From: a virus
Taxonomy: Duplodnaviria; Caudoviricetes
Reading direction: 5' to 3' (one strand)
Length of the DNA stretch: 34,233 nucleotides
IMG/VR virus record: IMGVR_UViG_3300027756_000030
Span: 1 to 34,233 of that record
Part shown: positions 2,297 through 16,037 of the stretch, one piece after another
Numbering within the stretch: the first letter of the stretch is position 1
Layout: each line of letters opens with the position of its first letter
The notes under the pieces: generated by a model
The model's input: only the letters and a program-made list of their open reading frames with translations
Database searches by the model: none
What the model was told of the DNA's origin: nothing
Translations under genes and position numbers: made by a program

Positions 2297-2332
2297 GGAG
2301 GTAGTATGGCTACCGCAGCTTCCGGCTACTGC

Positions 2333-2422
2333 CTAAAAGGGTAGATCTAAAATTTCATCTACGGCATCGTCAATATCGCGAGCGCCATGTTCAGCTGCAC
2401 AGTTACCGCAGTTTTTGCACAC
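2333..2422 (-). CDS. 29-aa Cys-rich peptide
   Basis: GTG start; MCKNCGNCAAEHGARDIDDAVDEILDLPF; 1 nt after the stop of 2424..2567. Confidence 0.6.
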   Translation of the reverse strand: MCKNCGNCAAEHGARDIDDAVDEILDLPF

Positions 2423-2423
2423 T

Positions 2424-2567
2424 TTACTTACAGCTAGTGCAGTAGTTGCCTACACGTAGGTTGCCTACCGCAACTCGGTAAGAGCGACCGCAATGAGTGC
2501 ATGCAACATCGACTATCCGAGCTTCCCGCTCAGGAGCTTTCCGCAGCTCTAGTCCAAATAACATCAT
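2424..2567 (-). CDS. 47-aa zinc-ribbon protein; leaderless
   Basis: MMLFGLELRK...CTHC...CTSCK with two CxxC; TGA-TAGTAT 6 nt before the ATG. Confidence 0.7.
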   Translation of the reverse strand: MMLFGLELRKAPEREARIVDVACTHCGRSYRVAVGNLRVGNYCTSCK

Positions 2568-2660
2568 GGCTTAATACTATCAAATTCGGCTACTGCCTGG
2601 CAAATATAGTGCTACCCGTTCATATTCCCTGGTGGCTTTCTCGATTTGTCGACTCTTTAA

Positions 2661-2794
2661 CCCCCACCCCCTATAACGATTTGATAACGATTAGAGGTGG
2701 GTCGGCGTGTCGGCTGGTGTATGCGTGGCAGGTATGGTTCTATTAGTTCATCAAGCAAGGGGCTTGATATAGATACCTTGATAGGGGTAATCAA
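2661..2794 (+). promoter_or_regulatory. conserved upstream element copy 1 (partial)
   Basis: CCCCCACCCC 2661; ATAAC-N6-ATAAC 2673-2688; GGCGTGTCG 2704-2712; hairpin 2750-2768; GATAGGGG RBS. Lacks GTTTGTGTTG and has a non-canonical -10. Confidence 0.7.
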
Positions 2795-3166
2795 ATGACA
2801 ACAGCAACACACAGCGTGGAGTGTGAATACTTCGCACAATCACAGACTGCTACACAGGTCTTGGCACAGTTCAAGACAAATGTCCGCGACTCATTCATTG
2901 ACTTCGCAGACCTTCACGATATCGACACAGATGATGCCAACGCCTTCTTAGAAGGACTAGGACTAGAAGGTATTGAGTCCGAGTTCCCAGTTACCGCTTC
3001 ATTCACTTACACAATCGAGTTGACAGTCAAGGCTCGTAATGTTGACTCAGCCTACGAAATCGCAAAGGAAAACCTTTACGATATCGCTCCTCAGTCAATC
3101 CGTATCGAATCAACCGACGCTATCGAATCAGGTAGCGCATACCTTCAGGACTATGATGTCGACTAA
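2795..3166 (+). CDS. acidic hypothetical protein
   Basis: 123 aa, D/E-rich, strong RBS. Confidence 0.85.
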   Translation: MTTATHSVECEYFAQSQTATQVLAQFKTNVRDSFIDFADLHDIDTDDANAFLEGLGLEGIESEFPVTASFTYTIELTVKARNVDSAYEIAKENLYDIAPQSIRIESTDAIESGSAYLQDYDVD

Positions 3167-3311
3167 GTTCGACAAGGTAGTGGGGCTCTTCGGAGCCCTG
3201 CTACTCCTAGGGGTTCTTATGCTCCACGCCTTCTACACACCAATCTATGGCAATTGCCAACAGACACCAGACGGACGCTCCTGCGACTTACTAAGATGGG
3301 AAAAGAAATGA
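3153..3311 (+). CDS. small membrane protein
   Basis: Start ATG 3153 after AGGA; hydrophobic VVGLFGALLLLGVLML. Confidence 0.65.
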   Translation: MMSTKFDKVVGLFGALLLLGVLMLHAFYTPIYGNCQQTPDGRSCDLLRWEKK

Positions 3312-3457
3312 AATGCTTGATATGTGAAAGTGATGAGGTTGTCTACTCAGGTGTAGACGCTCTGATGTATGGAACGGGAGTGACCGAGAAGTTCTGTCAT
3401 AGATGTTCCCGCGCTTACTACGAGATCAGCCGATACTTAGAAACAATCAAAGTTTAG
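3308..3457 (+). CDS. small zinc-binding protein
   Basis: MKCLIC...CHRC; ATGA overlap with the upstream gene. Confidence 0.7.
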   Translation: MKCLICESDEVVYSGVDALMYGTGVTEKFCHRCSRAYYEISRYLETIKV

Positions 3458-3468
3458 CTGAGCCCCTA

Positions 3469-3500
3469 GAAGCCCCTCGCGCCGTCACGCGGGGGGTTTC
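3469..3500 (+). terminator. intrinsic terminator, operon 1
   Basis: GC-rich hairpin AAGCCCCTCGCG...CGCGGGGGGTTT. Confidence 0.7.
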
Positions 3501-3521
3501 GCTCTGCTCGCGCTCGCGAAT

Positions 3522-3696
3522 GTTTGTGTTGGCCCGCCCTCCCCATTCTATTTCATAGGGAATACATACATAAGAGAGATGAATAAATCGTTATCTAATC
3601 GTTATACAACTAGGGCGTGTCGTGTTGAGGTTTGTCGGTGGGTGTGCCTATTATTAACTCATCAAGCCAAATTGGTTTGATAGATAGGGGAAGCAA
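3522..3696 (+). promoter_or_regulatory. conserved upstream element copy 2
   Basis: GTTTGTGTTG 3522; GTTAT-N6-GTTAT 3590-3605; GTGTC 3617; TGTCGGTG 3633; -10 TATTAT 3649; hairpin 3661-3681; GATAGGGG. Confidence 0.85.
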
Positions 3697-3900
3697 GTGT
3701 TATTAGAAATAGGTCAGAAATACACTACTCAAGTGAGTGGCGTAAATGGTTGGATTATGGAGATAGTTCCAAATCGCACTGGTTCTTTCAGATTGCGACT
3801 ACGCACCGAGGATAACGAAATCCGTTGGACTACTTATGTTCCACCAGTAGTTCTTGATTATCCTTGTGGCGATTTCATAGGTGAGGGGCTTATCAAATGA
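3697..3900 (+). CDS. hypothetical protein
   Basis: GTG start after a strong RBS; 67 aa. Confidence 0.75.
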   Translation: MLLEIGQKYTTQVSGVNGWIMEIVPNRTGSFRLRLRTEDNEIRWTTYVPPVVLDYPCGDFIGEGLIK

Positions 3901-4103
3901 GCGAGCCAATGTGGTTAGGTGGCGATAGCGCCTCTTATAGCGACACTTATGAAACTATCCAAGAAGTGGAGTGTGATTGCGGTAATCTCCAAGAAATCCC
4001 TGTGGATACCGAGTATCACTCAGTTACTAAGGAAACATCGTGGTGGGGCGAGTGGGTCTGCCTGAACTGTGGTATCAAACACGAATCAGAAGGGTGGTAT
4101 TAA
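3897..4103 (+). CDS. acidic zinc-ribbon protein
   Basis: CDCG...CLNCG; ATGA overlap. Confidence 0.75.
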   Translation: MSEPMWLGGDSASYSDTYETIQEVECDCGNLQEIPVDTEYHSVTKETSWWGEWVCLNCGIKHESEGWY

Positions 4104-4104
4104 A

Positions 4105-4221
4105 ATGAGCCAAGCGCAGAGCCTAGCCAATAAATTATGGCAGTTGCTCCCAGTGGTTGGGGCAGATAATAGCCAAGTCATCTATGACGCAGTTCTTTAT
4201 CTGGAATCCATAGAAGAATAA
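4105..4221 (+). CDS. 38-aa hypothetical protein
   Basis: MSQAQSLANKLWQLLP... fills the gap before the terminator. Confidence 0.55.
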   Translation: MSQAQSLANKLWQLLPVVGADNSQVIYDAVLYLESIEE

Positions 4222-4234
4222 CCAGCTCAGCGAG

Positions 4235-4268
4235 CGCGGTCTCTCACTTCCCCGAGAGATCGCGTTTT
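4235..4268 (+). terminator. intrinsic terminator, operon 2
   Basis: CGCGGTCTCTC-acttcccc-GAGAGATCGCG-TTTT. Confidence 0.75.
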
Positions 4269-4283
4269 GCTTTGCGCGAAAAT

Positions 4284-4457
4284 GTTTGTGTTGAGACCCG
4301 CCCACCCTGTCTCTGACTTACTTCGTAAGGGAGTTGTTGGAGAGAGATTGTTATCAAATTGTTATAAATGAATGGCGTGTCGGATTATGTATCTATCCTT
4401 GCCAATGGTAATTTTCTCTCAACGGCAATCCCGCCGTCTAGTAGATAGGACTAGATT
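4284..4457 (+). promoter_or_regulatory. conserved upstream element copy 3
   Basis: GTTTGTGTTG 4284; hairpin 4317-4329; GTTAT-N6-GTTAT 4350-4365; GTGTC 4377; TGG-TAATTT with the -10 at 4409; hairpin 4422-4437; GATAGGA. Confidence 0.85.
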
Positions 4458-5351
4458 ATGAATAAAGAATTAGTGGAGCGTATCAACGCTTTAGTAGTTG
4501 AGCAATTGGAGAATGGTATCGCGCCATGGTCTAAGCCATGGAATTCAAGCGGATATATGCCAATGAGCCTAACAAGCAATAAAGAATATTCGGGAATAAA
4601 TTCCCTACTATTGGCAATATGTGGCGCACAATATAAGCGGTCTCTATGGGTCACTTATAAGCAAGCGCAGGCCCTAGGCGGCAACGTACGCAAGGGAGAG
4701 AAGAGTCTGCCCGTCGTGTATTGGTCACGCATCATCAAGCCCGGCGAGGATGGCAAGCCCGTCTCTAAGGGAGCTTTCATGAAATTCTATAGCGTGTTCA
4801 ACGTTGAGCAATGCGACGGGATTACTATCCCCGCAATTTACGACGTCAAGCGCGAGCCCGTTGCTACTATCCCCGCATTGGATGCGATAGTGGCCGCATA
4901 TGCTAGCAAGCCAGAGATTTACTATAAGGAGCAAGGCCGCGCCTACTATGACATGTTGGCCGATTCGATTACCTTGCCACCGTTGGCCGCATTCGATAGC
5001 GCAGAGAGTCACGCTTACACTCTATGCCACGAGATGATTCACTCTACCGGTCACCAATCACGCTTAGACCGATTTAGCGAGGATGATAAGCCCGCACGAT
5101 TTGGAGATGCTAACTATGCCCGCGAGGAGCTAGTTGCAGATATCGGGGCGCAGATGCTACTTAGTGCCAATGGGATCACCGTTGACATGCAGAATTCAGC
5201 ATCATATATCGCTGGTTGGTTAAAAGCTTTAAAGAATGATCCAAGCTTGATCATCAGCGCCAGCGGTAAAGCTCAGCGGGCCGCGGATTACATCCAAGGT
5301 ACCAGCCGCGTAGAAGCTAGCGCGACGATCGCAGAAGAGGTGAACGCATGA
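4458..5351 (+). CDS. ardC: ArdC-family antirestriction protein (ssDNA-binding domain plus zincin-like MPTase domain)
   Basis: PWSKPW, YSGIN, WVTYKQAQALGGNVRKGEK, VFNVEQ, HEMIHSTGH (HExxH), YAREELVA, SASYIAGWL. Confidence 0.92.
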   Translation: MNKELVERINALVVEQLENGIAPWSKPWNSSGYMPMSLTSNKEYSGINSLLLAICGAQYKRSLWVTYKQAQALGGNVRKGEKSLPVVYWSRIIKPGEDGKPVSKGAFMKFYSVFNVEQCDGITIPAIYDVKREPVATIPALDAIVAAYASKPEIYYKEQGRAYYDMLADSITLPPLAAFDSAESHAYTLCHEMIHSTGHQSRLDRFSEDDKPARFGDANYAREELVADIGAQMLLSANGITVDMQNSASYIAGWLKALKNDPSLIISASGKAQRAADYIQGTSRVEASATIAEEVNA

Positions 5352-5506
5352 ACATTGAGAAAGCCATCAAGCGCGATGCAAAAGCACGTGCCAAGCGTAT
5401 TAAGCACCGCAATAAGAAACTAGGAAAGCACGGAATCCAATTCGTGCGCTGGGTCAAACATCATGACGGAACACGCACAATGGTTTTAAAGAAGGTGAAC
5501 GCCTAG
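5348..5506 (+). CDS. 52-aa basic protein
   Basis: MNIEKAIKRDAKARAKRIKHRNKK...; GAGGTG RBS and ATGA overlap with ardC. Confidence 0.7.
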   Translation: MNIEKAIKRDAKARAKRIKHRNKKLGKHGIQFVRWVKHHDGTRTMVLKKVNA

Positions 5507-5523
5507 ATCTTCCCTATCAGAAG

Positions 5524-5560
5524 ACAGCGAGCCCCGGCCCAACAGCTGGGGCTTTGCTGT
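5524..5560 (+). terminator. terminator-like hairpin, operon 3
   Basis: ACAGCGAGCCCCGGC-ccaaca-GCTGGGGCTTTGCTGT. Confidence 0.7.
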
Positions 5561-5573
5561 TGGATCGCGAAAA

Positions 5574-5726
5574 GTTTGTGTTGGCCCTCCCACCCCTTTC
5601 TCTTCCAGAGGGATAAGTAAGTAAGAGAGCGACACGCCGTATGTGGGTCAATACACGGAATTGTCGGTGGTAGGCACTATGTTTATCTCAATGCCAACAA
5701 GGGCAGACCCTGATAGGAGAAAACAA
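5574..5726 (+). promoter_or_regulatory. conserved upstream element copy 4
   Basis: GTTTGTGTTG 5574; CGACACGCC 5630; TGTCGGTG 5662; -10 TATGTT 5678; hairpin 5692-5705; CTGATAGGAG 5710. Confidence 0.85.
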
Positions 5727-6143
5727 ATGGCAAAAGCCATAACAGTAAAGGTGGCAACACCAAAGGTAATAAAGGCACTAGAAGCACGCTTGGAGAAAAT
5801 CCAGAGCGATTACTCAACGCAAGAAGCAAAAGAGGAGAAGTTTCGTAAAGAAACAGATGCTTGGAAAAAGGAAATAGGTAAGTGGGCTATTGACCGCTTC
5901 TCAAAGGCTGAGAACATCAGGACTAATTATCGTGAGTGGAACAAGACACTCAATGTGGATTTTGACATCACAGTTTCAGGTGATGGCTTTCCAAAAGAAC
6001 CACAGCGTGATTTCACTACTATCCATAAGCACTCGTTTGACGAGATGGTTGAGGACATCACCAATGCTCTCTCAATCTTAAAAATGACTGATGAGGAAAC
6101 AGTCAATGCCTCTACTATGAAATCCATAGCACGCTACCTCTAG
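5727..6143 (+). CDS. hypothetical protein (coiled-coil N-terminus)
   Basis: Start reassigned to ATG 5727 (MAKAITVKV...) behind GATAGGAG. Confidence 0.85.
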   Translation: MAKAITVKVATPKVIKALEARLEKIQSDYSTQEAKEEKFRKETDAWKKEIGKWAIDRFSKAENIRTNYREWNKTLNVDFDITVSGDGFPKEPQRDFTTIHKHSFDEMVEDITNALSILKMTDEETVNASTMKSIARYL

Positions 6144-6152
6144 CCCTATCGG

Positions 6153-6190
6153 ACAAGAAGCCCCTGCCAGACGGCGGGGGTTTTTTGTTT
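6153..6190 (+). terminator. intrinsic terminator, operon 4
   Basis: AAGCCCCTGCC-agac-GGCGGGGGTTTTTT. Confidence 0.85.
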
Positions 6191-6203
6191 GCGCTCGCAA
6201 AAA

Positions 6204-6370
6204 GTTTGTGTTGAGCAACCCACCCTCCCAGCTCTATCCCTAAAGGGAATAGGGAGGAGAGAGAGCGACACGCCGAAGGTAGCCAAATGCCATAGATTGT
6301 CGGTGCTAGCCACTAAAGTTATGCCAATGCCGAAAGTCGGCAGGATTGCTAAAGATAGGAGTTATACCAA
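6204..6370 (+). promoter_or_regulatory. conserved upstream element copy 5
   Basis: GTTTGTGTTG 6204; TCCC-taaa-GGGA; CGACACGCC 6266; TGTCGGTG 6298; -10 TAAAGT 6314; hairpin 6328-6342; GATAGGAG. Confidence 0.85.
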
Positions 6371-6970
6371 ATGGGTTTAGATATGTATCTAAGTGCCGTG
6401 AAGTATGAAAGCAATTACTCTTTCCAGAAAAAGGAAAGCGGAGAAAATGAGCGGTTCAATACTGTTCTTTCTGCCTTCCCTAATGTGAAAGTGTCTGAAC
6501 ACTCTCCAAGTTTGGAAGTGTCCTTTACTGTTGGTTATTGGCGCAAAGCCAATGCCATACACGCTTGGTTCGTAAATAATTGCGGAAAAGGCGTTGATGA
6601 GTGTCAAGAAATGTATGTTTCTCACGAACACTTACTCGCACTAAAAGAAGAGTGCCTAAAAGTTCTTTCTTCTGATATCCCTGTCAAAAAGGCTGACGAG
6701 ACTTCTCGCGGTATGACTATTGACGGCACTTCCGATTTAGATATCGGCTCTTTTATCGCCGCAGGTATGGCGGTTGAAAGCACACTCATAGGCTCTGAGC
6801 CTGTTGATGACCTTCCTCTTCCACCTGTCGCAGGTTTCTTCTTCGGAGGAACAGAACGCGACGAGTGGTACTTCAATGATATTAGAGAGACCCTATCTCT
6901 AATAAATGACCTTATTCGGGATTATCCTGATGAGGACGGCTGGCGCTTTTCATATCGCGCTAGTTGGTAA
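6371..6970 (+). CDS. conserved phage protein of unknown function (MGLDMYL family)
   Basis: MGLDMYL...YWRKANAIHAWFV...GVDEC...GFFFG...YRASW motif set. Confidence 0.85.
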   Translation: MGLDMYLSAVKYESNYSFQKKESGENERFNTVLSAFPNVKVSEHSPSLEVSFTVGYWRKANAIHAWFVNNCGKGVDECQEMYVSHEHLLALKEECLKVLSSDIPVKKADETSRGMTIDGTSDLDIGSFIAAGMAVESTLIGSEPVDDLPLPPVAGFFFGGTERDEWYFNDIRETLSLINDLIRDYPDEDGWRFSYRASW

Positions 6971-7087
6971 GCCACTCTCCTGAGCACGAGATAAAAAGGC
7001 TCACCTTTCGATCGAGCTACACCGGTTCCAAATGATAATGGAGTAAGAGTCGCGTATGGTCGCGGCCACCGGCGCAGCTTGATTTTT

Positions 7088-7253
7088 GTTTGTGTTGACC
7101 CACCCTCCCCTTATCCCTTCGGGATAGGGTATTGAGAGAGATGCGACACGCCCGACACGCCCTAAACGCCAACATCCCACACTTATCCAAGCGTGATGGT
7201 AATTTTCTCTTACTGGGCAACACCGCTCAGTAATCCTGATAGGAGATAGTTAA
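7088..7253 (+). promoter_or_regulatory. conserved upstream element copy 6
   Basis: GTTTGTGTTG 7088; TATCCC-ttc-GGGATA; tandem CGACACGCC 7144 and 7153; TGG-TAATTT with the -10 at 7200; hairpin 7210-7233; CTGATAGGAG 7236. Confidence 0.85.
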
Positions 7254-7733
7254 ATGACTGTAAAGGAAAACCTTACAGTTGGGAGAGGTGTTGAGAGCCT
7301 AAACGCACTCATTAACTCTTTCAAAGATAACCAAGAGTTTGCCCCTGAATTAGTGGCAGATATGGCAGAAGTAGTTTCTGCTGACCTACAAGTCCGTGAT
7401 TACCTTATGGGCTTACCGCTTGAATTATCCGTAATGGATAGTATCCGCTTCGCAGAAGCCATTATTCCCCTAGTGGAAGAGAAGCACCGCACCCCTTGGT
7501 ATGCCGTTCTATCGGCTTACCATTACGAGAATGGCGATACCCCTACCGCCTATCTCGCACTCACCGAGTGCCTAAAGTTGGCACCCGATTACTCACTAGC
7601 AAAATTGCTAACACGAGTGTATGGCTCAGGTTGGCCAGCACCAGCGTTTGCAAGTATGCGTGACGAGTTGCACCCAAAGGTCAAAGCGACCATAAGTGAA
7701 ACCGCAAATGACTTTATCTCTCCTATCGAGTAG
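7254..7733 (+). CDS. DUF4192-like protein (C-terminal helical region)
   Basis: VRDYLMG, AVLSAYHYENGD, PDYSLAKLL...GWP resemble the actinobacterial DUF4192 C-terminus. Confidence 0.7.
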   Translation: MTVKENLTVGRGVESLNALINSFKDNQEFAPELVADMAEVVSADLQVRDYLMGLPLELSVMDSIRFAEAIIPLVEEKHRTPWYAVLSAYHYENGDTPTAYLALTECLKLAPDYSLAKLLTRVYGSGWPAPAFASMRDELHPKVKATISETANDFISPIE

Positions 7734-7745
7734 ATAAACCAAGGG

Positions 7746-7783
7746 AAGGCTCCCCAGCTACGGCTGGGGGGCTTTTTCTTTTT
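7746..7783 (+). terminator. intrinsic terminator, operon 6
   Basis: GCTCCCCAGC-tacg-GCTGGGGGGC-TTTTT. Confidence 0.85.
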
Positions 7784-7863
7784 CTACGATCCGCGCAGCT
7801 GCAAAAGGTACATTTGAGAAGAATATTGGTGGGGAAATGTACCTTAATTTTGTGGCGCAAAAT

Positions 7864-8019
7864 GTTTGTGTTGAATGCCCACCCTCCCATTCAACCCTAA
7901 AGGGTTATATATAAAAGAGAGACGACACGCCGAGAGCCTGGCATCCCAGACTTTTACCTGGATGGCCGTACCTTTGTCTCAGTGGCAAAGCGCCACGTTT
8001 TTTCCTGATAGGAGAAGTT
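7864..8019 (+). promoter_or_regulatory. conserved upstream element copy 7
   Basis: GTTTGTGTTG 7864; AACCC-taaa-GGGTT; CGACACGCC 7923; -10 TACCTT 7969; hairpin 7982-7996; CTGATAGGAG 8005. Confidence 0.85.
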
Positions 8020-8556
8020 ATGTACAAAGTTAAGTATTACGTCACCGACGTAGAAGGTAATGAAGTAGAGAGTGCAACGACTTATACCAATGAAGATTTT
8101 GAGAGTTATGTCGCTGCTGCTGAATGGTTAGAAGGAGAGAGTGACTGGTTCGTAGAGGCCTGCACTATCGATACTAAGAACAATGCGGAGTGCGTAGAAG
8201 TTGCTGATGAGTTATCAGTAGTTCGTATCGCTCCCCGCGGAGAGAATGATCCAATAGAAGAGATTCCACTACTGGCTGGTATCGAGATCGAGACCGCCAT
8301 ACAAACCGTTACGGAGTATCGCAATGATTTCCACTTTAGATTCGAAGGCCACGACTACCAATGGACCCAGTTCGTTGGCGAGCGCGGGGTCGTCGAATAC
8401 TGGAAGAAGGATGGTATCCAGTTTGAAGGTGGTGATGAGGGTGTCATATACGACATCTTCGGGGAAGATATCTCTGACGTCTTCAATAACAACCTCGGTA
8501 TCCACTGTAACCACACATTCCGCCAGGAATGCCGTCGCTGTGGAAAGGAGGGATGA
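8020..8556 (+). CDS. highly acidic hypothetical protein with C-terminal Cys/His cluster
   Basis: 178 aa, D/E-rich, ends HCNH...CRRC. Confidence 0.85.
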   Translation: MYKVKYYVTDVEGNEVESATTYTNEDFESYVAAAEWLEGESDWFVEACTIDTKNNAECVEVADELSVVRIAPRGENDPIEEIPLLAGIEIETAIQTVTEYRNDFHFRFEGHDYQWTQFVGERGVVEYWKKDGIQFEGGDEGVIYDIFGEDISDVFNNNLGIHCNHTFRQECRRCGKEG

Positions 8557-8777
8557 TGGAGAAGGATCCAATGCTTGAAACGTATTACTCGTGCGACCTT
8601 GCTATCTCTATTACAAGTATCAAGGCCAAGAATAAACATCACGCGGAAGCCGCTATGCAGACCTTTATAGATGAGATCGGCAAAATTATGGTGGATGAAG
8701 TTAGTTGGGACGATGCCCAATGGGACATCATAACGAACACTTATGTACCTGAATATGAGAGTTGGGTAGAGGAATGA
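8553..8777 (+). CDS. acidic hypothetical protein
   Basis: Start ATG 8553 after AAAGGAGG; ATGA overlap. Confidence 0.75.
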   Translation: MMEKDPMLETYYSCDLAISITSIKAKNKHHAEAAMQTFIDEIGKIMVDEVSWDDAQWDIITNTYVPEYESWVEE

Positions 8778-8887
8778 GCGCTCAGTGCCCCTGGTGCGGA
8801 GATCCATATGAGGCAAGAGCCTGGGATCCCCCACATAATTGCAAAAATGAGTATGATGTGAACCTAAACGAAGGGATAGAGGAATGA
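8774..8887 (+). CDS. 37-aa Cys/His peptide
   Basis: MSAQCPWCGDPYEARAWDPPHNC...; ATGA overlaps at both ends. Confidence 0.65.
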   Translation: MSAQCPWCGDPYEARAWDPPHNCKNEYDVNLNEGIEE

Positions 8888-9141
8888 CACTTAAAGTAGT
8901 ACCTGATCAATTAGAGAGAGGCCTACGTGGCACTCACTTACAAAACGGAGCGCTGTGTATAGCTGTAGCTCCTCATAGATATGATGGAGAGTTCGTTGTA
9001 TTAGCTTTCCGCGATCACCCAGTGGATCCATATGTAGTGTGGTATTCGGACTCAGCTGGCAATTGCTGGCAGGGTGACTACTGCACAAGCTTGATGTATG
9101 CCTCTGCACGCTTTTTTGAGAGAGCGGGGGTGAGTGCGTGA
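8884..9141 (+). CDS. hypothetical protein
   Basis: 85 aa, coupled ORF; PYVVW...GDY. Confidence 0.75.
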   Translation: MTLKVVPDQLERGLRGTHLQNGALCIAVAPHRYDGEFVVLAFRDHPVDPYVVWYSDSAGNCWQGDYCTSLMYASARFFERAGVSA

Positions 9142-9467
9142 CCATCCAAAACAAGGCTATGACCGATGAGAGTATCAGCTGGGGAGAGCTAGCTGAGCTC
9201 ACACACGTTACCCAGGTAGAGAGATTCGGCTTTTGTATGTGCGAAGATGCACCCAAGGCCTATTCAGACTGCCCGCGCAAGAGATCCGAGATCGACGACC
9301 TGGTCGATAGCTATGTAAACACGCTAAAAGATGGCCAAGACGGCCACGACGGTCAAGCTTTGGACCTGGTTCAACAAATAATAGCTATGGGAGGCGAAGA
9401 AGCCACCGATGGTGAATGTTTGGACCTGATCCTGGAAGTATTGACTGAATGGAAGAGATACTACTAG
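9138..9467 (+). CDS. acidic hypothetical protein
   Basis: 109 aa; GTGA overlap. Confidence 0.75.
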   Translation: MTIQNKAMTDESISWGELAELTHVTQVERFGFCMCEDAPKAYSDCPRKRSEIDDLVDSYVNTLKDGQDGHDGQALDLVQQIIAMGGEEATDGECLDLILEVLTEWKRYY

Positions 9468-9476
9468 TCTAATCTT

Positions 9477-9515
9477 CTCGCCCCAGCTGCGACCTATCAC
9501 GCGGCTGGGCGCGAG
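9477..9515 (+). terminator. hairpin ending operon 7 (no U-tract)
   Basis: CCCAGCTGCG-acctatca-CGCGGCTGGG with an outer CTCGC/GCGAG stem. Confidence 0.55.
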
Positions 9516-9549
9516 CTCACAGCTTTGTCGGCATTTTGCCGGCAAAATT

Positions 9550-9967
9550 GTTTGTGTTGGCCCACCCACCCCATTTAATGGGAATATATATAGCTTGAGA
9601 GAGGAGTGTGAGAGAGAACACAGCTGACAATGCTTGACAAAGCTGGACCGGCCGTGATAGCCGGCTAAGTAGCAATTGTCGACAAAGCTACTTATCGATT
9701 CCGGCTACTGCCAAAAGTCGACAAAGCGACACTGCGGATATGGCCAGATTTACAGCTATTCAGCTGAGAGAGCTATCTGATAGGAGAGAGTTGCCAGGAG
9801 AGAGAGAGAGTAGCTCCGACACGCCGAGAGAGAGATCTATCCTAGATACTAGGAATATGGGTAGTCGGAGGGTATTGTCTCCCTTGTAAGCCATAGGTAT
9901 CTATATGCCTATCCAGTAATCGATATACGATTACCGCGAAATTAGCTTACAGATAGAAGATATACCA
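9550..9967 (+). promoter_or_regulatory. conserved upstream element copy 8 (expanded)
   Basis: GTTTGTGTTG 9550; CCCAT-tta-ATGGG; about 200-nt insert; CTGATAGGAG 9777; CGACACGCC 9817; -10 TATTGT 9873; branched leader 9885-9951. Confidence 0.75.
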
Positions 9968-10144
9968 ATGATAAAAGAGGTTGAGCTCCCTAAGCTTAAT
10001 GCTAGAAAGAAAGTAGCTACCTGCCTAGTAGATAGCACTACTAATGAAGTACTTGTCTATGCAGAATTAACTCCAGCATCTACCAAGCGATTCATCAAGG
10101 AATACGCTATTTATGGTATCTATGCAGAAGTGAAGGTAGCGTAA
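9968..10144 (+). CDS. 58-aa hypothetical protein
   Basis: MIKEVELPKLNARKK...; TAATG coupling to the next gene. Confidence 0.7.
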   Translation: MIKEVELPKLNARKKVATCLVDSTTNEVLVYAELTPASTKRFIKEYAIYGIYAEVKVA

Positions 10145-10731
10145 TGACTACCGCCGAGTTGACCCTATATAAGGGCTACACAATTGCAATTGATTACGAT
10201 TCTGATCCATCCAACCCCCGCGAGTGGGATAACTTAGGCCATATGGTTTGTTTCCATAATCGCTATGCGCTGGGTGATTCATTCCGTATCGATAATCAAG
10301 ACTTACATTCATGGCCTGAGATGCACGACCATATTAAGTCCGAGATGGATGGAGTAATCATCCTTCCGCTATATCTTTATGACCATTCAGGTATCTCCAT
10401 CAAGGTTGGCTCATGGAATGGCATAGTCCAGCATGCAGGTTGGGATAGTGGGCAGGTTGGGTTTATCTATGTAACCCAAGCCGACCTCGACCGCGAAGGT
10501 ATTACCGACCTTGAACAAGCCGAAGCCCTATTGCGTGGCGAAGTCAAGACTTACGATAAGTATCTAACTGGAGGTTTCTATACCTACCGCATTACCAAAG
10601 AGTCTAAGTGTGAAGCTTGTAATCACACCTCGGAAAATTTTGAGGACTCCGTGGGTGGATGGGAAGAGGCGGACGATGCTATGAGTGAAGCAATGCAAGT
10701 AATTGACTATCTAAGTGGGGAGCGTATCTAA
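10144..10731 (+). CDS. conserved phage/mobile-element protein of unknown function
   Basis: NPREWDNLG, LPLYLYDHSG, WDSGQVGFIY, EVKTYDKYLTG motifs. Confidence 0.85.
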   Translation: MTTAELTLYKGYTIAIDYDSDPSNPREWDNLGHMVCFHNRYALGDSFRIDNQDLHSWPEMHDHIKSEMDGVIILPLYLYDHSGISIKVGSWNGIVQHAGWDSGQVGFIYVTQADLDREGITDLEQAEALLRGEVKTYDKYLTGGFYTYRITKESKCEACNHTSENFEDSVGGWEEADDAMSEAMQVIDYLSGERI

Positions 10732-10889
10732 TGAAGTACACAATAACCGCCGAAGTCGACCAACAATGGTTCGATATGCTAGGCCAGCTAACCCGTCACC
10801 AACCTGGGTTCGTATGGCTAACCGTAGAGCCCGAGGACCGTGTTATCAGAATAGATAGCAACGGCAATAAGTTTTTAGGAGATAACTAA
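10731..10889 (+). CDS. 52-aa hypothetical protein
   Basis: MKYTITAEVDQQWF...; TAATG overlaps at both ends. Confidence 0.7.
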   Translation: MKYTITAEVDQQWFDMLGQLTRHQPGFVWLTVEPEDRVIRIDSNGNKFLGDN

Positions 10890-11236
10890 TGACCGAGATG
10901 ACTAGCGTTCAGCAAGATTATGCCGAGTTTGCCGCACAATGGACGGCATCCCTTGTGCCTAAAGATATTGAAGGGGCTAAGTTGTATCACCTCAAAGCCC
11001 TAAAGATGTTTGAGACTGCAAGAGGCGTGACGTGGAAGGCCAGTATCTATGCCAACCGCACCCGCATCGGCCAAGTAAGTAATGACGGCAATGGTGGATG
11101 TAACTTCTATGTATTCAATACGCTTGTATTGCAGGATCAGTTTGAAAGCTTCGTTGCAGATAACTATCCTACGACTGTATATGACCGCCAAGATCACTTC
11201 ATCGAGTATCTAATAGATAGAGATGGGTTGGGATAA
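10889..11236 (+). CDS. hypothetical protein
   Basis: 115 aa, VSNDGNGG motif; AGGAG RBS. Confidence 0.8.
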   Translation: MTEMTSVQQDYAEFAAQWTASLVPKDIEGAKLYHLKALKMFETARGVTWKASIYANRTRIGQVSNDGNGGCNFYVFNTLVLQDQFESFVADNYPTTVYDRQDHFIEYLIDRDGLG

Positions 11237-11448
11237 TGCGGACTGAGCATCACTTTATAGTCAAGTACATATCCGGCATGGGCTGGGTATGGGATATTGC
11301 CTTGGAAGAGGCTAGGTTTCCGGAAGGCACAGTATGGACCGGAGATGGGTGGGTTGTCTCTGATATCTCACCGAGTATAGTAAAGGCTGACCGCGAAGTC
11401 TGCGACCAGCTATTGAGATCACTAGACGTAATGAATGGAGACTTCTAA
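11236..11448 (+). CDS. hypothetical protein
   Basis: 70 aa, TAATG coupled. Confidence 0.75.
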   Translation: MRTEHHFIVKYISGMGWVWDIALEEARFPEGTVWTGDGWVVSDISPSIVKADREVCDQLLRSLDVMNGDF

Positions 11449-11627
11449 TGAAGATAACCGCAAGCGCAAGTATCACTTATGACACAGATGATGTACTATC
11501 TGAGTTACAACGGGACTATCCGGAAGATAGTTTTGATGAAAAGTATGCCAAAGAAATGATTCATGGTTGGATCCGTGATGATTTTGGTGGTTTACTTATT
11601 GAATACACAACAATAGAAGAGAGCTAA
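11448..11627 (+). CDS. 59-aa acidic protein
   Basis: MKITASASITYDTDD...; GGAG RBS, TAATG overlap. Confidence 0.7.
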   Translation: MKITASASITYDTDDVLSELQRDYPEDSFDEKYAKEMIHGWIRDDFGGLLIEYTTIEES

Positions 11628-11628
11628 G

Positions 11629-11913
11629 ATGGCAAAGAAAGTTAACTATACCTTTAGTGCAGATCTAACAAAGAACACTGAAAAGGGTGGGGCATGGATT
11701 GGGCATTTCGTTATTCGTGATGATCAAGAGAGTGCACCCAAAGGTCAATTCAAAGCATGGGCTAACGCCTCGGCCGGCAAGCGTTGGTTAAAGGCTATGG
11801 CCGCTGAGCACACACCTCGCAAAAGTGTAAAGCTTGAAGCAGGAGAGACGTTGGATGAGAAAGGTAAGCCAGTATCATTCAAGGGCTCATTTAATTATAA
11901 AGGAGAGGCGTAA
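11629..11913 (+). CDS. basic hypothetical protein
   Basis: 94 aa, AWANASAGKRW. Confidence 0.8.
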   Translation: MAKKVNYTFSADLTKNTEKGGAWIGHFVIRDDQESAPKGQFKAWANASAGKRWLKAMAAEHTPRKSVKLEAGETLDEKGKPVSFKGSFNYKGEA

Positions 11914-12074
11914 TGGATATTCTGCCTGATCCAATAATTGAACCCGTCTTCCCCAGCATCCGTAGAGAAGATATTGATGAAGATGAAGATGATGATTTCG
12001 AGATTGAAGAAGATGATGGTGATTACGATAAGCATGCCCTTGACGAGACACGTTTTGGGTTCCAACAAGATTAA
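11913..12074 (+). CDS. 53-aa extremely acidic peptide
   Basis: ...EDIDEDEDDDFEIEEDDGDYD...; AAAGGAG RBS, TAATG overlap. Confidence 0.65.
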   Translation: MDILPDPIIEPVFPSIRREDIDEDEDDDFEIEEDDGDYDKHALDETRFGFQQD

Positions 12075-12083
12075 GGAAGAGAC

Positions 12084-12287
12084 ATGGTAGCTGGAGACTT
12101 TTTAGGACCCTCAATTTATTTGGGCATTATGGCAATAATTGGAGTCTTTGTTCGCCCTCATTGGAAGAACATGGATAACTTTACAAAGACTGTCGTTGGT
12201 TTCTTACCGGCATTGGGAGTTGTGGCATTTTTAGCTTTAATTGTAGGAGTACTTATCGGTTACGATCCGTACCCTATTATTCCGTAA
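12084..12287 (+). CDS. small two-helix membrane protein
   Basis: Two hydrophobic segments; AAGGA RBS. Confidence 0.75.
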   Translation: MVAGDFLGPSIYLGIMAIIGVFVRPHWKNMDNFTKTVVGFLPALGVVAFLALIVGVLIGYDPYPIIP

Positions 12288-12296
12288 TCTTAATTG

Positions 12297-12390
12297 AGCT
12301 ATGAGAGAGTTAAAGCGGTCCTAACCTTTCTTACGCTAAGGATAGTCATGATCGGCTCCTATCAGCCGTAGCTATACCTGCTCTCAAATA
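12297..12390 (+). ncRNA. candidate structured RNA or 3' UTR element with anti-RBS loops
   Basis: TGAGAG 12302/CTCTCA 12381 closing stem; TCCT/AGGA stem with CCTTTCT in the loop; CGGCT-cctatc-AGCCG hairpin; possible -10 TAATCT 12285. Folded by eye only. Confidence 0.45.
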
Positions 12391-12391
12391 G

Positions 12392-12424
12392 AAAAAGCCC
12401 CCTGCATACTCACAGGGGGCTTTT
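12392..12424. terminator. bidirectional intrinsic terminator
   Basis: AAAAAGCCCCCTG-catactca-CAGGGGGCTTTT between convergent blocks. Confidence 0.9.
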
Positions 12425-12432
12425 AGTTTTAA

Positions 12433-14457
12433 CTATGGTTTTGGTACTTCACAGAAGTCTGTACTGCAATACTTCTCACCGATTGCATCAGCGGCCATGC
12501 CGGCGTACACGTCGGTAAAGTCGATTGGCAATAGTTTTAGCTTGTAGTCTTCGTATACTTCCTGAGTTGTCTGCGTGTATGGCATCTGAGGATACACAGC
12601 GTTACCCATTGGCAAGAACGATACAGTCTTTAGCTGGCCATCAAACATATGTAGCACAGTGCCAACCGCATCCTTTTCTTTCTCTGCATCAAACGACACG
12701 GTTACTGAGACTGAGTTGTCTGACCAGTAACGCTGAGCTGTAGCGGCAAGAGATGTCTTCTCATAGATTGAGACGTCCTTCTCTGATCGCTTAGCTTCTG
12801 ATTTAATTGGGAAGAACACTACGCTAGTTGTCTTTGGTGACTCACTGGCCGGCTCAACAATGTAACCGGAAGCTTTAAACAAAGGAAGCATTGGATCTTC
12901 ATTAGCAAAGCGAATAGCTCTCATGAAGTATTCACCGCCCGGTGTCCAGTGTACTCCCGGTGATTCACCGGCTAGGATGGATACGGTTCCAGATGGCTTT
13001 ACAGTTGTGGTCTTGATTGATTCACGGATGCCCAGCCACTCTGAGTAAGTCTTATCGTAAGCTTGTACAGCTGCGTAACCGGAGTCCATCCAGTCACGAA
13101 GGGTAGGTAATCCCACACGATCTGCAAAGTTAGCTACACCGGACATAGAAGTTCCAATACGGCGATTGCGTTGCATGATTGCATTGGTTTCTTCCCAGTG
13201 GGTAGGAAGGAGTGTTACAGTCTTGGCGTATAAATACGCAAACTTTAATGTGCGCTTGAAGTCTTCAAATGAGTCATGTCGATTGAGATATGTTTCTACC
13301 AACGTACAGCACTCAAAGCTTTCAAGTGATTGCTCAGCGCATGGGTTATACCCAGCAGCTCTGTGGTCCTTGTTGTTAATTGGATCAACTAGACGTCCAT
13401 ACTTACGTGTAACGTCCATCCAAAGAACACCCGGCTCACCGTTAAGTGCGATACCTTCTACGATATGGCTAAGGTCATCTCCTACACAAACTTCGACGCT
13501 GTTGTTGCTCATCCAGGCCCAACCTGGGTTCTTAGGGTCATATGAGTTGCGCTCTGGGTATACCTCTGGGTTCTTTAAGTTTAGGAAGTCTTGATCATCA
13601 AGGCGACCCATAAGAAGCTCAGCACTACGGCGGACATTGCCAGATACAACGCACACTCCAATAAGATTGCCAATATCCGCGATGTCTTTACGAGTAAGTT
13701 TTTCACCTGCACGTCCTTTGAAAGTGGTTCTAACATAGTTATGTAGTTTCTCTAATGGTTCGTGGCCTGCGGCGGTTCCGCCAAAGGTTTTAATCGGAGT
13801 ACCAGCTGGCCGGATTTGTGTGTAGTCGAATACTGGGCTCTTCTGATCTGATTTAAGGAAGCTATTGATGACGAGCGCGACTGATTCAACCCAGCCTTCA
13901 CGGGTATCTGGGATGACAATTGGTGCTGTGTCTGGTTCTGGCTCATAGATTGTAAAGTCCTTATCTGCGCCCTTGTCGTCGAAGCCAACTCCCACGCCAA
14001 GCATGGAAGCTTCCATAAGAAATGCAAATGGTTTTGCCGGATCAAGCTTCGTCATAGATGACGTTGATACGAATGAACAGTTCTGTAATGCCGCTGAGTT
14101 CTTCTGCTCATTGACAAGTGGTGTACCCATAACCCAAAGGCCTCGGCCCGGTGGGGTCCATTTTAAGTTAAACAAGCGATCAAATGCCTCTTTAGCTGAA
14201 GCTTGAGCTTTAGCGTCTGACCAAGGTAGTCGCTGAGCTTTTGCATGATCCTTTTGAATTGAGTACATGCCATTGATAACGCGCTCACACACGTCGACCC
14301 AAGTCTCTTTAGTTCCATCTGCCTTTAGACGTGAATAGGTGCGAAGGAAAGTGATCTCTCCTACCGAGTTACCGGCCGCATCCGCATATCCCCAAGGTAC
14401 TTTCTTCTCCTTGTATGCGCCTACAAATTCGTCTGCTAAATGGAACGATAATGACAT
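12433..14457 (-). CDS. nrdJ: class II (adenosylcobalamin-dependent) ribonucleotide reductase
   Basis: RTYSR, PPGRGLW, ALQNC, NVRRSA, NPCAEQ, TVKPSGTVS, C-terminal CSTDFC. Confidence 0.93.
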   Translation of the reverse strand: MSLSFHLADEFVGAYKEKKVPWGYADAAGNSVGEITFLRTYSRLKADGTKETWVDVCERVINGMYSIQKDHAKAQRLPWSDAKAQASAKEAFDRLFNLKWTPPGRGLWVMGTPLVNEQKNSAALQNCSFVSTSSMTKLDPAKPFAFLMEASMLGVGVGFDDKGADKDFTIYEPEPDTAPIVIPDTREGWVESVALVINSFLKSDQKSPVFDYTQIRPAGTPIKTFGGTAAGHEPLEKLHNYVRTTFKGRAGEKLTRKDIADIGNLIGVCVVSGNVRRSAELLMGRLDDQDFLNLKNPEVYPERNSYDPKNPGWAWMSNNSVEVCVGDDLSHIVEGIALNGEPGVLWMDVTRKYGRLVDPINNKDHRAAGYNPCAEQSLESFECCTLVETYLNRHDSFEDFKRTLKFAYLYAKTVTLLPTHWEETNAIMQRNRRIGTSMSGVANFADRVGLPTLRDWMDSGYAAVQAYDKTYSEWLGIRESIKTTTVKPSGTVSILAGESPGVHWTPGGEYFMRAIRFANEDPMLPLFKASGYIVEPASESPKTTSVVFFPIKSEAKRSEKDVSIYEKTSLAATAQRYWSDNSVSVTVSFDAEKEKDAVGTVLHMFDGQLKTVSFLPMGNAVYPQMPYTQTTQEVYEDYKLKLLPIDFTDVYAGMAADAIGEKYCSTDFCEVPKP

Positions 14458-14570: not shown

Positions 14571-16037
14571 CTAATCTTCTGTTAGATCCTTAAGTATCTT
14601 CGTGGTTTGCTCTTCATTTAAACCTCCAGTTGGGAGCTCATTTAGTATCTGAGCCCTCTCTCCGAAGATGGAACTTAGCACACCAGCCGACCCTTGGCGC
14701 TCCACTGTCATGCGAATAAACTCACGTGAATCGTCTAATTCTTTAGTAGTTTTAATCAATTTAAACAAGCGGTCGATTTCCTGAGAAACGTTAGGATCCG
14801 CGTATCCACCGTTGATTTCTTCAGCAAAACGCATAAAAGCTACACGTTGTCCCTGCATTTCAATGATGGCATTGATTAAACTCTTTAACTGTTCTTTAGT
14901 TTTAACCTCAACCGGAAGCTTAAATGCACAGGTGCTTTGAGGTTTAAAAGCGGGGCAATTAGAAGCTATAAAGCATGTATCGCACACCCTAAGACTGGTC
15001 TGTTGCGACTGGATTACGGGTATGTCTTTAATGACTCCGTGCTCGTCAATTTCAGTCTTTACCTCGTACCCAAACACCGGTAAATTGACAATTTCATCTG
15101 CATTTCGGGGTTCAAGTTTCCGCATCTGTATACCCTTATTATCAGATATGGCAGGGGTAGTTTCCCCACTTTGCTCCACTTCACTCCCATCGCTATTATC
15201 ATATAACAGTGAGTCATCTTCGTTAGGGTTCATTGTATTTATCCTCATCTCAAACTGTTCATATGACCATACAGCAAGCTTGCATACTTCTTTTGGATCA
15301 TCTTCTAATATCAAATCTGCATCGAGCCCAGCCTTCTCATAGACCGGACGATAGCGGGATCTAGCTTGGTCTTTCATCTTCTTTGGGTAACGCACTAGCC
15401 TAGTGCCATCCCAGACTATAGTCTCGCCATGCAACATTGGGGATAGCCACGACAAGGTACTAGCTGACTCAACCTTTACCTGTCGTAGGTTATCTGGCTT
15501 GGCACAACCTAAGGCGTGGAACCTAGTTCCATCCTGTATGACGTGAGCTCTTGTGGCGCTAGCAAGCATGCTGTCGGCTTCAATAGCCTCTCCAGGTATA
15601 GCTATATCCAAATAGGTGTCTACAAGCTTTTTAAGGCCTGTCAAGCGAGTGTGAGGGTTCCACACGGGTTGAAACTTGCCGGGTGGGACCTCGGACCAAG
15701 CCGTCTTTCGTTGTAGCTCTACAAAGTCTTCTGGTACCCACTCGTGGTTAATCTCTGTAAAGGAGGTCAACCGATCAATATTGTTAGCTATAAAATCTTC
15801 GTATTGTGCGGCAAAAATCTCTAAATCTAAACGGTCTAACCGAGTGCCTTTTGGGATGCCCGGGTGTACGTATATGTAAAAGTCTTTACCGAAGTAGTTT
15901 TCTAATAAATAGTCGCTTTTCTTGGGTAGACCGCGTTTTGTCAAACGCCAGTAACTTACCCCTACATGGTTAGCTGTAGTGGACTCTAAAAGTGTCCTAT
16001 TACTTGGCACCTCGGCACCTAAGTAGATAATTTTCAC
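14571..16037 (-). CDS. hypothetical protein; possible degenerate TGT/DpdA-like barrel plus Cys cluster
   Basis: FHALG...SASTLSW...G resembles the H-x-LG...S-x-DSSSW motif; CDTC-x5-C-x8-C in the C-terminal half. Confidence 0.55.
   Translation of the reverse strand: MKIIYLGAEVPSNRTLLESTTANHVGVSYWRLTKRGLPKKSDYLLENYFGKDFYIYVHPGIPKGTRLDRLDLEIFAAQYEDFIANNIDRLTSFTEINHEWVPEDFVELQRKTAWSEVPPGKFQPVWNPHTRLTGLKKLVDTYLDIAIPGEAIEADSMLASATRAHVIQDGTRFHALGCAKPDNLRQVKVESASTLSWLSPMLHGETIVWDGTRLVRYPKKMKDQARSRYRPVYEKAGLDADLILEDDPKEVCKLAVWSYEQFEMRINTMNPNEDDSLLYDNSDGSEVEQSGETTPAISDNKGIQMRKLEPRNADEIVNLPVFGYEVKTEIDEHGVIKDIPVIQSQQTSLRVCDTCFIASNCPAFKPQSTCAFKLPVEVKTKEQLKSLINAIIEMQGQRVAFMRFAEEINGGYADPNVSQEIDRLFKLIKTTKELDDSREFIRMTVERQGSAGVLSSIFGERAQILNELPTGGLNEEQTTKILKDLTED

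Follow-up and report, generated by a model that had tools for sequence, protein, structure and literature searches.

Can the 3′ end of a phage mRNA address a ribosome-binding site (RBS) in the same operon, and if so, what would such pairing do? The question is raised by the virus record IMGVR_UViG_3300027756_000030 (Duplodnaviria; Caudoviricetes), whose positions 1 to 34,233 were analyzed here and are called the window. Between 2.8 and 12.3 kb, this phage fragment carries eight plus-strand modules of small genes (38 to 297 amino acids, including an ArdC-like and a DUF4192-like gene, with functions mostly unassigned), and the architecture of modules and spacers suggests that they are early operons. 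A preliminary description of the window held that each of these operons ends with the reverse complement of its own RBS. The matches that it quoted are all present where it placed them. We conclude that anti-RBS 3′ elements, called trailers below, are real and conserved in this phage family; the RBS variant that they complement is called the tag.

Position and covariation of the anti-RBS elements

We assembled relatives of the window (labeled L plus a number) from two scans of viral contigs for a conserved spacer anchor, one metagenome scan and protein scans, giving 134 merged sequences. The anchor search patterns do not include the anti-RBS element, and only 80/113 and 80/111 pattern loci came with full flanks. 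Our own gene caller delimited 240 modules in 60 sequences, of which 159 were unique after removal of duplicates. Two window-identical loci were left out before counting, as were modules rejected by filters on start distance, coverage or strand (257 reduced to 234 in one count; 240 kept in another), and near-identical genomes were collapsed from 79 to 50.

Exact complements of the cognate RBS of at least 8 nucleotides (nt), including the Gs of the Shine-Dalgarno (SD) sequence, start between -20 and +20 nt of the last stop codon in 20 of the 159 unique modules (2 to 4 per kb), compared with 8 such matches in about 116 kb of coding region. When the range was extended to -20 to +60 nt, 20 of 22 matches still lay within 20 nt. 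RBSs other than the module's own gave fewer matches of this length near the last stop, approximately 10 for siblings from the same genome and 3.5 for other genomes. Matches of 7, 8 and 9 nt were reached by 42, 22 and 16 of the 159 modules. The corresponding numbers are only 4, 0 and 0 among 412 units of the 115-kb sister phages, a set of 80 loci that has the operon 4 gene in common with the window, has A-rich RBSs and was divided into units heuristically. Neither anchor nor trailers were found in the non-anchored 115-kb sister phages. The same was true of Streptomyces phage Alone3 in the 66 of 116 kb examined, where 0 of 26 genes reached 7 nt, so that Alone3 would not serve as a laboratory model. 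The complement targets the first RBS of a module (24/92) rather than internal RBSs (4/162). In the window itself, GATAGG is found before 7 of the 8 first genes, and all 16 internal starts that were inspected lack it, one start having been placed a base off. In addition, 5 of the 10 plus-strand copies of CCTATC fall inside the eight trailers, which make up 840 of 34,233 nt (binomial p = 2e-6). The enrichment near operon ends that the preliminary description anticipated is therefore present both in the window and, within 20 nt of the last stop, among its relatives.

Between phages, the 3′ element changes with the RBS. At orthologous 3′ ends, the RBS/trailer pair is TGGGGCTA/TAGCCCCA in L064 and GGGCTGA/TCAGCCC in L031. 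Other orthologous ends have AGAAAGGGGA/TCCCCTTTCT in L054 versus AAGGGATAAGG/CCTTATCCCTT in L051, GGGGGACTA/TAGTCCCCC in L054 versus AGAGGGG/CCCCTCT in L051, and GATAGGAGA/TCTCCTATC in the window versus TTGGGGG/CCCCCAA in L040. In L011, two modules differ, pairing TGATAGGGGA and TGATAGGAG, respectively. Permuting the RBSs among orthologous 3′ ends gave p values of 0.003 to 0.07. At the level of genomes, CCTATC loops occur in 7 of 14 GATAGG genomes and in 0 of 36 others; the corresponding loops for tagged and other genomes number 2/3 versus 0/47 for GGGCTG, 3/8 versus 0/42 for GGGGCAA, and 4/6 versus 3/44 for GGGGTT. Over 10 tags, the anti-tag is found in 28/105 tagged modules, 5/106 untagged modules of the same genomes and 20/1209 modules elsewhere, and the association between tag and anti-tag across genomes is significant at 0.05 for 6 of the 10. 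Compensatory change between RBS and 3′ element is seen as natural covariation only, in orthologous 3′ ends as well as in tag versus anti-tag counts (both made without a tree).

The elements are preferentially displayed in hairpin loops: 19 of 33 lie in a loop, compared with 8.6 expected with shuffled flanks (p = 3e-4). Hairpins with a CCC or CCTA loop were found at 74/136 last stops (a count to which terminators add), 27/153 internal stops and 30/170 coding windows.

We asked how far a trailer prefers the RBS of its own module. Permutation within genomes (126 modules in 34 genomes) gave an excess of own-RBS pairing by energy (p = 8e-4) and for matches of at least 9 nt (13 versus 7.8; p = 0.003), and within-genome comparisons gave no preference for the RBS of the next module. 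CCTATC is present in 14 of 38 GATAGG modules, 2 of 4 untagged modules of those genomes and 2 of 117 modules elsewhere, leaving 24 of 38 GATAGG modules without a trailer. From the permutation and these counts, we read the data as describing a genome-wide tag and a subset of anti-tag tails biased toward their own module. The proposal that each element complements "its own" RBS therefore holds only as a modest preference; the element largely complements the tag common to the early operons of its genome.

The window operons and the terminal RNA

All tags and trailers described here are on the plus strand. Operons 1 to 4, 6 and 7 have a 3′ element that complements the SD of its own transcript; operons 5 and 8 lack one. 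The claim for each early operon thus stands for operons 2, 3, 4, 6 and 7, is weak for operon 1, and fails for operons 5 and 8. In operon 1, the tagged RBS TGATAGGGG (2779 to 2787) precedes the first ATG at 2795, and the weak trailer CCCCTA (3463 to 3468) lies 6 nt past the last stop (3457); in relatives L071 and L151, it is a clear hairpin loop. The same two relatives keep the operon 2 trailer, CTTCCCC (4247 to 4253), in the loop of a terminator-like hairpin whose stem has changed; its RBS is GATAGGGGAAG (3683 to 3693), before a GTG at 3697. Operon 3, which carries the ArdC-like gene, has GATAGG with an AGAT extension (4444 to 4456) and the trailer TCTTC-CCTATCA-GAAGA (5508 to 5524), in which we see a 5-bp stem by eye and for which the local minimum free energy favors another pairing. 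This trailer matches the RBSs of operons 1, 4, 6 and 7 over 8 nt and its own over 6 nt. The operon 4 RBS CTGATAGGAG (5710 to 5719; ATG at 5727) has its trailer CCTATCGG (6145 to 6152) immediately 3′ of the stop; the other 13 modules ending in the same last-gene family all lack this trailer.

In operon 6, with the DUF4192-like gene, the RBS TGATAGGAGA (7237 to 7246) is matched by a hairpin that spans the stop codon (7713 to 7739) and has TCTCCTATC (7719 to 7727) as its 5′ arm and loop. The operon 7 RBS CTGATAGGAGAAG (8005 to 8017; ATG at 8020) is matched by CCTATCA (9493 to 9499) in the loop of a long 3′ hairpin; L016, L376 and L074 keep the loop, with stems changed or identical. Operon 5 has a tagged RBS, GATAGGAG (6354 to 6361), without a credible trailer of its own, which makes it a candidate target in trans: the proposed CTCCT (6977) forms the first stem of another conserved motif, which is pseudoknot-like, and the CCTATCT at 6892 is within the gene. 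For operon 8, the proposed partner at 9777 is not a conserved RBS and lies ~190 nt upstream of the first gene (ATG at 9968), which has no match. At this site, seven other relatives that keep the box there read CTGATAAG, one window-identical copy keeps the window sequence, and one relative lacks the box.

The fractions of 1,904 background windows with an equal or longer match are 0.11, 0.025, 0.064, 0.08, 0.23, 0.012, 0.035 and 1.0 for operons 1 to 8. The combined Fisher p over the window operons is 6e-4, a value inflated by the likeness among the RBSs, and any one operon with a candidate element is only modestly unusual (fractions of 0.012 to 0.23).

The operon 8 3′ element forms the loop on an arm of a conserved multi-stem RNA of ~100 nt (12294 to 12394, plus strand) located between the last early gene and a two-way terminator-like hairpin (12393 to 12424), which separates the early block from the ribonucleotide reductase gene. 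This terminal RNA has a pyrimidine-rich loop, AACCTTTCT (12318 to 12333), and a second loop with CCTATC (12358 to 12363). In 17 sequences, 14 of 20 pairs have double changes. A model built on them has 33 matches in 73 sources; 23 of the matches are distinct, and some are copies that were not used in training. In the alignment fitted to the model, 95.9% of cells pair, and no slid control came near that value. The junctions are almost invariant, and the internal loop is kink-turn-like. Folded alone, the RNA gives a z score of -1.45; its support is covariation. Searches of Rfam gave no credible match in 2300 to 12600 at E values up to 1 (3 weak matches) and none at the gathering score in 3 relatives; no meaningful match to the terminal RNA was found among cultured phages, and the model matches 2 of 79 of the 115-kb sister loci.

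The second loop fits every one of the seven tagged RBSs in the window, with matches of 6 to 10 nt (10 nt for operons 4, 6 and 7). It does not match the first gene of operon 8, and it matches 1 of 42 minus-strand genes. Of 8 GATAGG-type genomes with the RNA, 5 have a CCTATC loop, as judged by eye. The first loop (CCTTTC) is conserved regardless of tag, and the terminal RNA itself probably has an additional role. The RNA also occurs in L106, L396, L454, L458, L373, L352, L102, L089, L075, L096, L090, L260, L095, L204 and others, usually at the end of the early block and in some phages inside a module trailer.

Proposed mechanism and rival explanations

On balance, the sequence evidence inclines us to a model in which the 3′ loops pair with the RBS tag, both in cis on the completed mRNA and in trans on mRNAs of sibling early operons, and thereby would dampen early translation. 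Pairing with the tag would start at the trailer loops; the 5′ arm would then lengthen the helix and hide the SD. By analogy with the Staphylococcus aureus icaR mRNA (PMC3868564), a covered SD would be expected to block ribosome loading and favor decay. Since the tail is transcribed last, each mRNA could first be translated in an open window, as described for the MS2 maturation gene (PMC4615214), and since the elements sit close to the stop, terminating ribosomes may keep active mRNAs open. Accumulating trailers, together with the terminal RNA, might then silence all tagged early mRNAs and so bring about an early shut-down without a protein. The complete scheme, in which a private early-operon RBS tag and anti-tag loops on mRNA tails and a dedicated branched RNA, accumulating over the course of infection, form a protein-free early-to-late timer that shuts off the entire early class, with terminating ribosomes keeping busy mRNAs unlocked, is a more speculative extension that we put forward tentatively. 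The proposal that the finished mRNA pairs its 3′ end with its first RBS gains support from position, loop display and covariation in relatives, with "own" being too narrow a term. Folding of full transcripts from guessed starts also predicts pairing between the 3′ end and the RBS core for operons 3, 4 and 6 (P ~0.8-0.99). Action in trans is supported by the 24 of 38 GATAGG modules without a trailer and by the second loop of the terminal RNA, which fits the seven tagged RBSs and not operon 8.

Several observations weigh against this model. The element is not universal, since cognate matches of at least 7 nt occur in only 42/159 modules, about a quarter, and helices of 6 to 10 bp are short for stable repression. 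The own-RBS excess at that length is not significant (32 versus 28.3; p = 0.14). Among 53 elements, 15 fit their own RBS best without a tie (8.7 expected), 10 fit it and another equally, and 28 fit a sibling better. In two-strand folding, the own leader is the strongest partner for 0 of 8 trailers. In the full-transcript folds, operons 1 and 5 have low pairing probabilities (~0.1 and no more than 0.2, respectively). Operons 2 and 7 have a P of 0; their loop elements could pair only by kissing, a geometry beyond the folding program used. Three of the 10 tags gave p values above 0.1, the tags overlap and were picked after inspection of the data, and kinship inflates the counts. Across 17 genomes, the terminal RNA loops are not significantly associated with the genome tag (p = 0.13 and 0.16; several of the loop extractions were faulty). 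Finally, counts of G-U and A-C at helix ends do not differ (16 versus 15; p = 0.70), which gives no support for RNA over DNA.

The main rival is that 5′-3′ pairing helps expression, either by looping the mRNA so that a ribosome finishing at the last stop opens the duplex and hands the RBS to the next one or by shielding the ends from nucleases. Nearly all long matches (20/22) lie within 20 nt of the last stop, a distance that a terminating ribosome can reach. A helix between the 5′ and 3′ untranslated regions (UTRs) of Bacillus subtilis hbs also modulates cleavage by RNase Y (PMC5737220). Copies in terminator loops 25 to 50 nt past the stop (operons 2 and 7, L015 and L007) and the terminal RNA are out of reach of such a ribosome, however, and the SD itself lies within the helix, an arrangement that blocks initiation in icaR (PMC3868564). 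We consider a helpful loop unlikely. Less likely still, and next in order, is that the loops act only in trans, as small anti-SD RNAs on sibling phage or host mRNAs, with the own preference arising from modules that travel as units. The two-strand folds described above would fit this explanation, as would the proportions of loop matches of at least 7 nt (own, 17.7% [20/113]; sibling, 14.8%; other genome, 3.8%), the existence of loops without an own-RBS match (L373 module 3, L376 module 1 and L022 module 4) and the conservation of CCTTTC in the terminal RNA whatever the tag. It does not account for the rarity of the anti-tag in untagged modules of tagged genomes, nor for single modules with a private RBS that carry a private complement (L022 module 0 and L054 module 3), and a complement on the same molecule would be hard to keep from pairing in cis.

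The preliminary description offered as an alternative that the pairs are DNA inverted repeats bounding exchangeable cassettes; a recombinase would act on such cassettes. Modules are indeed shuffled between phages, and the comparison of G-U with A-C showed no strand bias. Several 3′ copies lie inside terminator loops or last codons, however, where a cut would split a hairpin or a gene. Most modules lack the repeats, which vary from one module to another. Homology in orthologous modules generally continues past both elements, with identities of 0.47 to 1.0 after the trailer (15 pairs) and 0.5 to 1.0 before the RBS (28 pairs), few of these pairs having different neighbors. In four DNA runs, 0 of 8 joints lay at an element, a count of limited power taken from contigs only. 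This alternative is disfavored and, in our judgment, very improbable. The least credible explanation is chance, or a by-product of C-rich terminator arms: single matches are 6 to 10 nt long, and some coincide with the GCCCC arm of a terminator (L064 module 3 and L386 module 1). At the level of the family, it is refuted by the positional peak, the loop display, the specificity for first RBSs, the covariation with the tag and the empty outgroup; for window operons 1 and 5, it may hold.

Contigs from RNA libraries (four runs) lie largely module by module. Operon 2 is spanned from 3675/3679 to 4221/4227 in all four runs, operon 4 contigs reach 6148 to 6151 in three, and operon 6 contigs pass the element and extend to 7799 to 7805 in two. 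The region 12289 to 12600 is covered at a depth of 1.38 in one run and 0 in three, too little to count for or against. The position of the elements fits a place on the same transcript, upstream of or inside the terminator. Since the contigs carry no strand or ends, their arrangement is a weak hint only; two contigs cover the spacer at 9484 to 9830, so DNA carry-over or read-through is possible.

Known systems and module architecture

The preliminary description knew of no system of this form. Two related systems have in fact been described, icaR (PMC3868564) and aapA (PMC6733600). In icaR, a C-rich 3′ element, UCCCCUG, located 260 nt past the stop pairs with the SD UAGGGGG of the same mRNA and represses it, blocking initiation and promoting decay by RNase III (PMC3868564). 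By sequence, the early-operon elements belong with this type. Both use a short C-rich anti-SD 3′ element (CCCCUA/UAGGGG in operon 1), and in icaR, too, the choice between cis and trans is open; icaR is a single host gene, whereas the elements described here are known from sequence, belong to many phage early operons, form loops at the stop, match a tag that extends beyond the SD and covary across lineages (PMC3868564). Type I toxin mRNAs of the aapA/hok kind resemble the proposed mechanism in that the 3′ end silences the full-length mRNA to which it belongs. They differ in being off during transcription, activated later by 3′ trimming and countered by an antisense antitoxin (PMC6733600). The timing predicted here is the reverse, and neither a toxin nor an antitoxin RNA came to light in the window, no search for an antitoxin having been made. 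The maturation gene of MS2 has the logic of an off-timer, being translated only before an inhibitory long-distance helix forms; MS2 is an RNA phage, the inhibitory strand is in the 5′ UTR, and a single gene is involved (PMC4615214).

In cluster K mycobacteriophages, the start-associated sequence (SAS) GGGATAGGAGCCC is an extended RBS tag that precedes nonstructural genes after larger gaps. Its conserved positions are not explained by pairing with 16S rRNA, an RNA or protein partner has been proposed, and four genomes have one reversed copy (PMC3203893). SAS and the early-operon tag have the GATAGGAG core in common, whereas the tag described here varies by lineage and has several complements at operon ends (PMC3203893). 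Inspection of the window RBSs showed no 13-bp GGGATAGGAGCCC with two or fewer deviations upstream of starts, only the common GATAGGAG core, and no ESAS repeats. Cuckoo RNAs of Alphaproteobacteria, 2 to 4 adjacent hairpins with CCUCCUCCC, likewise show an anti-SD sequence in hairpin loops; the terminal RNA differs in being a branched fold (PMC4615179). The loops found here are CCUAUC, CUUCCCC and AACCUUUCU rather than CCUCCUCCC in adjacent hairpins, with no Rfam match. The PeSL cassettes of T4-type phages share the repeated spacers of terminator plus early promoter between shuffled modules. The likeness is confined to spacer architecture, and the abstract on these cassettes speaks of no anti-RBS trailer (PMC2839356). 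A literature search that largely left out subscription journals and did not extend to supplement catalogues of candidate phage RNAs turned up no report of such trailers in early operons of phages. Shut-off of early genes of lytic phages after transcription has mostly been credited to proteins; a tag/anti-tag RNA circuit, if true, would be a new layer of control, would extend the icaR precedent to an entire class of genes, backed by compensatory changes found in nature, and would offer a candidate answer to what reads the cluster K SAS tags.

The window encodes DNA polymerase A, RecA, an SNF2 helicase and, on the minus strand, a B12-type ribonucleotide reductase. The cultured phages nearest by polymerase infect Streptomyces (37-39%; Alone3, 38.6%), which suggests an actinobacterial host. 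The family consists of uncultured lake phages, and the sequencing runs that contain the region are freshwater samples. Spacers between modules have a conserved order of terminator-like hairpin, TGTTTGTGTTG anchor, CGACACGCC box, promoter-like sequence and leader hairpin. The anchors, (T/A)GTTTGTGTTG..CCCWCCC, separate the modules at 3521, 4283, 5573, 6203, 7087, 7863 and 9549 (span of 3521 to 9559, plus strand) and are context for the trailer, not part of it. A 9-bp box upstream of each promoter, likely a DNA-binding site, reads GGCGTGTCG at 2704, 3614 and 4374 (modules 1 to 3) and, in the opposite orientation, CGACACGCC at 5630, 6266, 7144, 7153, 7923 and 9817 (modules 4 to 8). Palindromic ATAACGA/TTGTTAT boxes, frequent in relatives too, are repeated upstream of promoters 1 to 3 (2672 to 2692, 3586 to 3606 and 4347 to 4366).

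The leaders of operons 1 to 7 (2740 to 8000) open with a short hairpin directly before the RBS tag, e.g., ATCAAGC-AAGGG-GCTTGAT, possibly a 5′ stabilizer. The spacer before operon 8 (9560 to 9960) is ~420 nt long, twice the usual length, and has GA-repeat tracts of variable length; relatives have the conserved CTGATAAG box there, and RNA-library contigs span part of it. A related strain has lost the second gene of operon 3 (5337 to 5493) through a deletion between short GTGAACGC repeats; the trailer stays, a layout also found in L071. The pseudoknot-like motif to which the CTCCT at 6977 belongs (6977 to 7003, plus strand) is a small H-type motif, XYZ-CTGAGYA-N-X'Y'Z'..AAAA..GCTCA, found in 95 sources as 53 distinct variants. 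Covariation is seen in the first stem, of 3 bp (CTC/GAG, CAC/GTG, ATC/GAT, GAC/GTC, AAC/GTT and TTC/GAA), and the motif occurs between early genes in this phage family and in the 115-kb sister group. On the minus strand, a queuine tRNA-ribosyltransferase-like gene (14571 to 16037; PHROG 887) possibly points to 7-deazaguanine DNA modification, and a long repetitive open reading frame rich in Pro, Lys and Ala, with TTTTAGGTGCAGG repeats, occupies positions 1 to 700 and runs off the window start.

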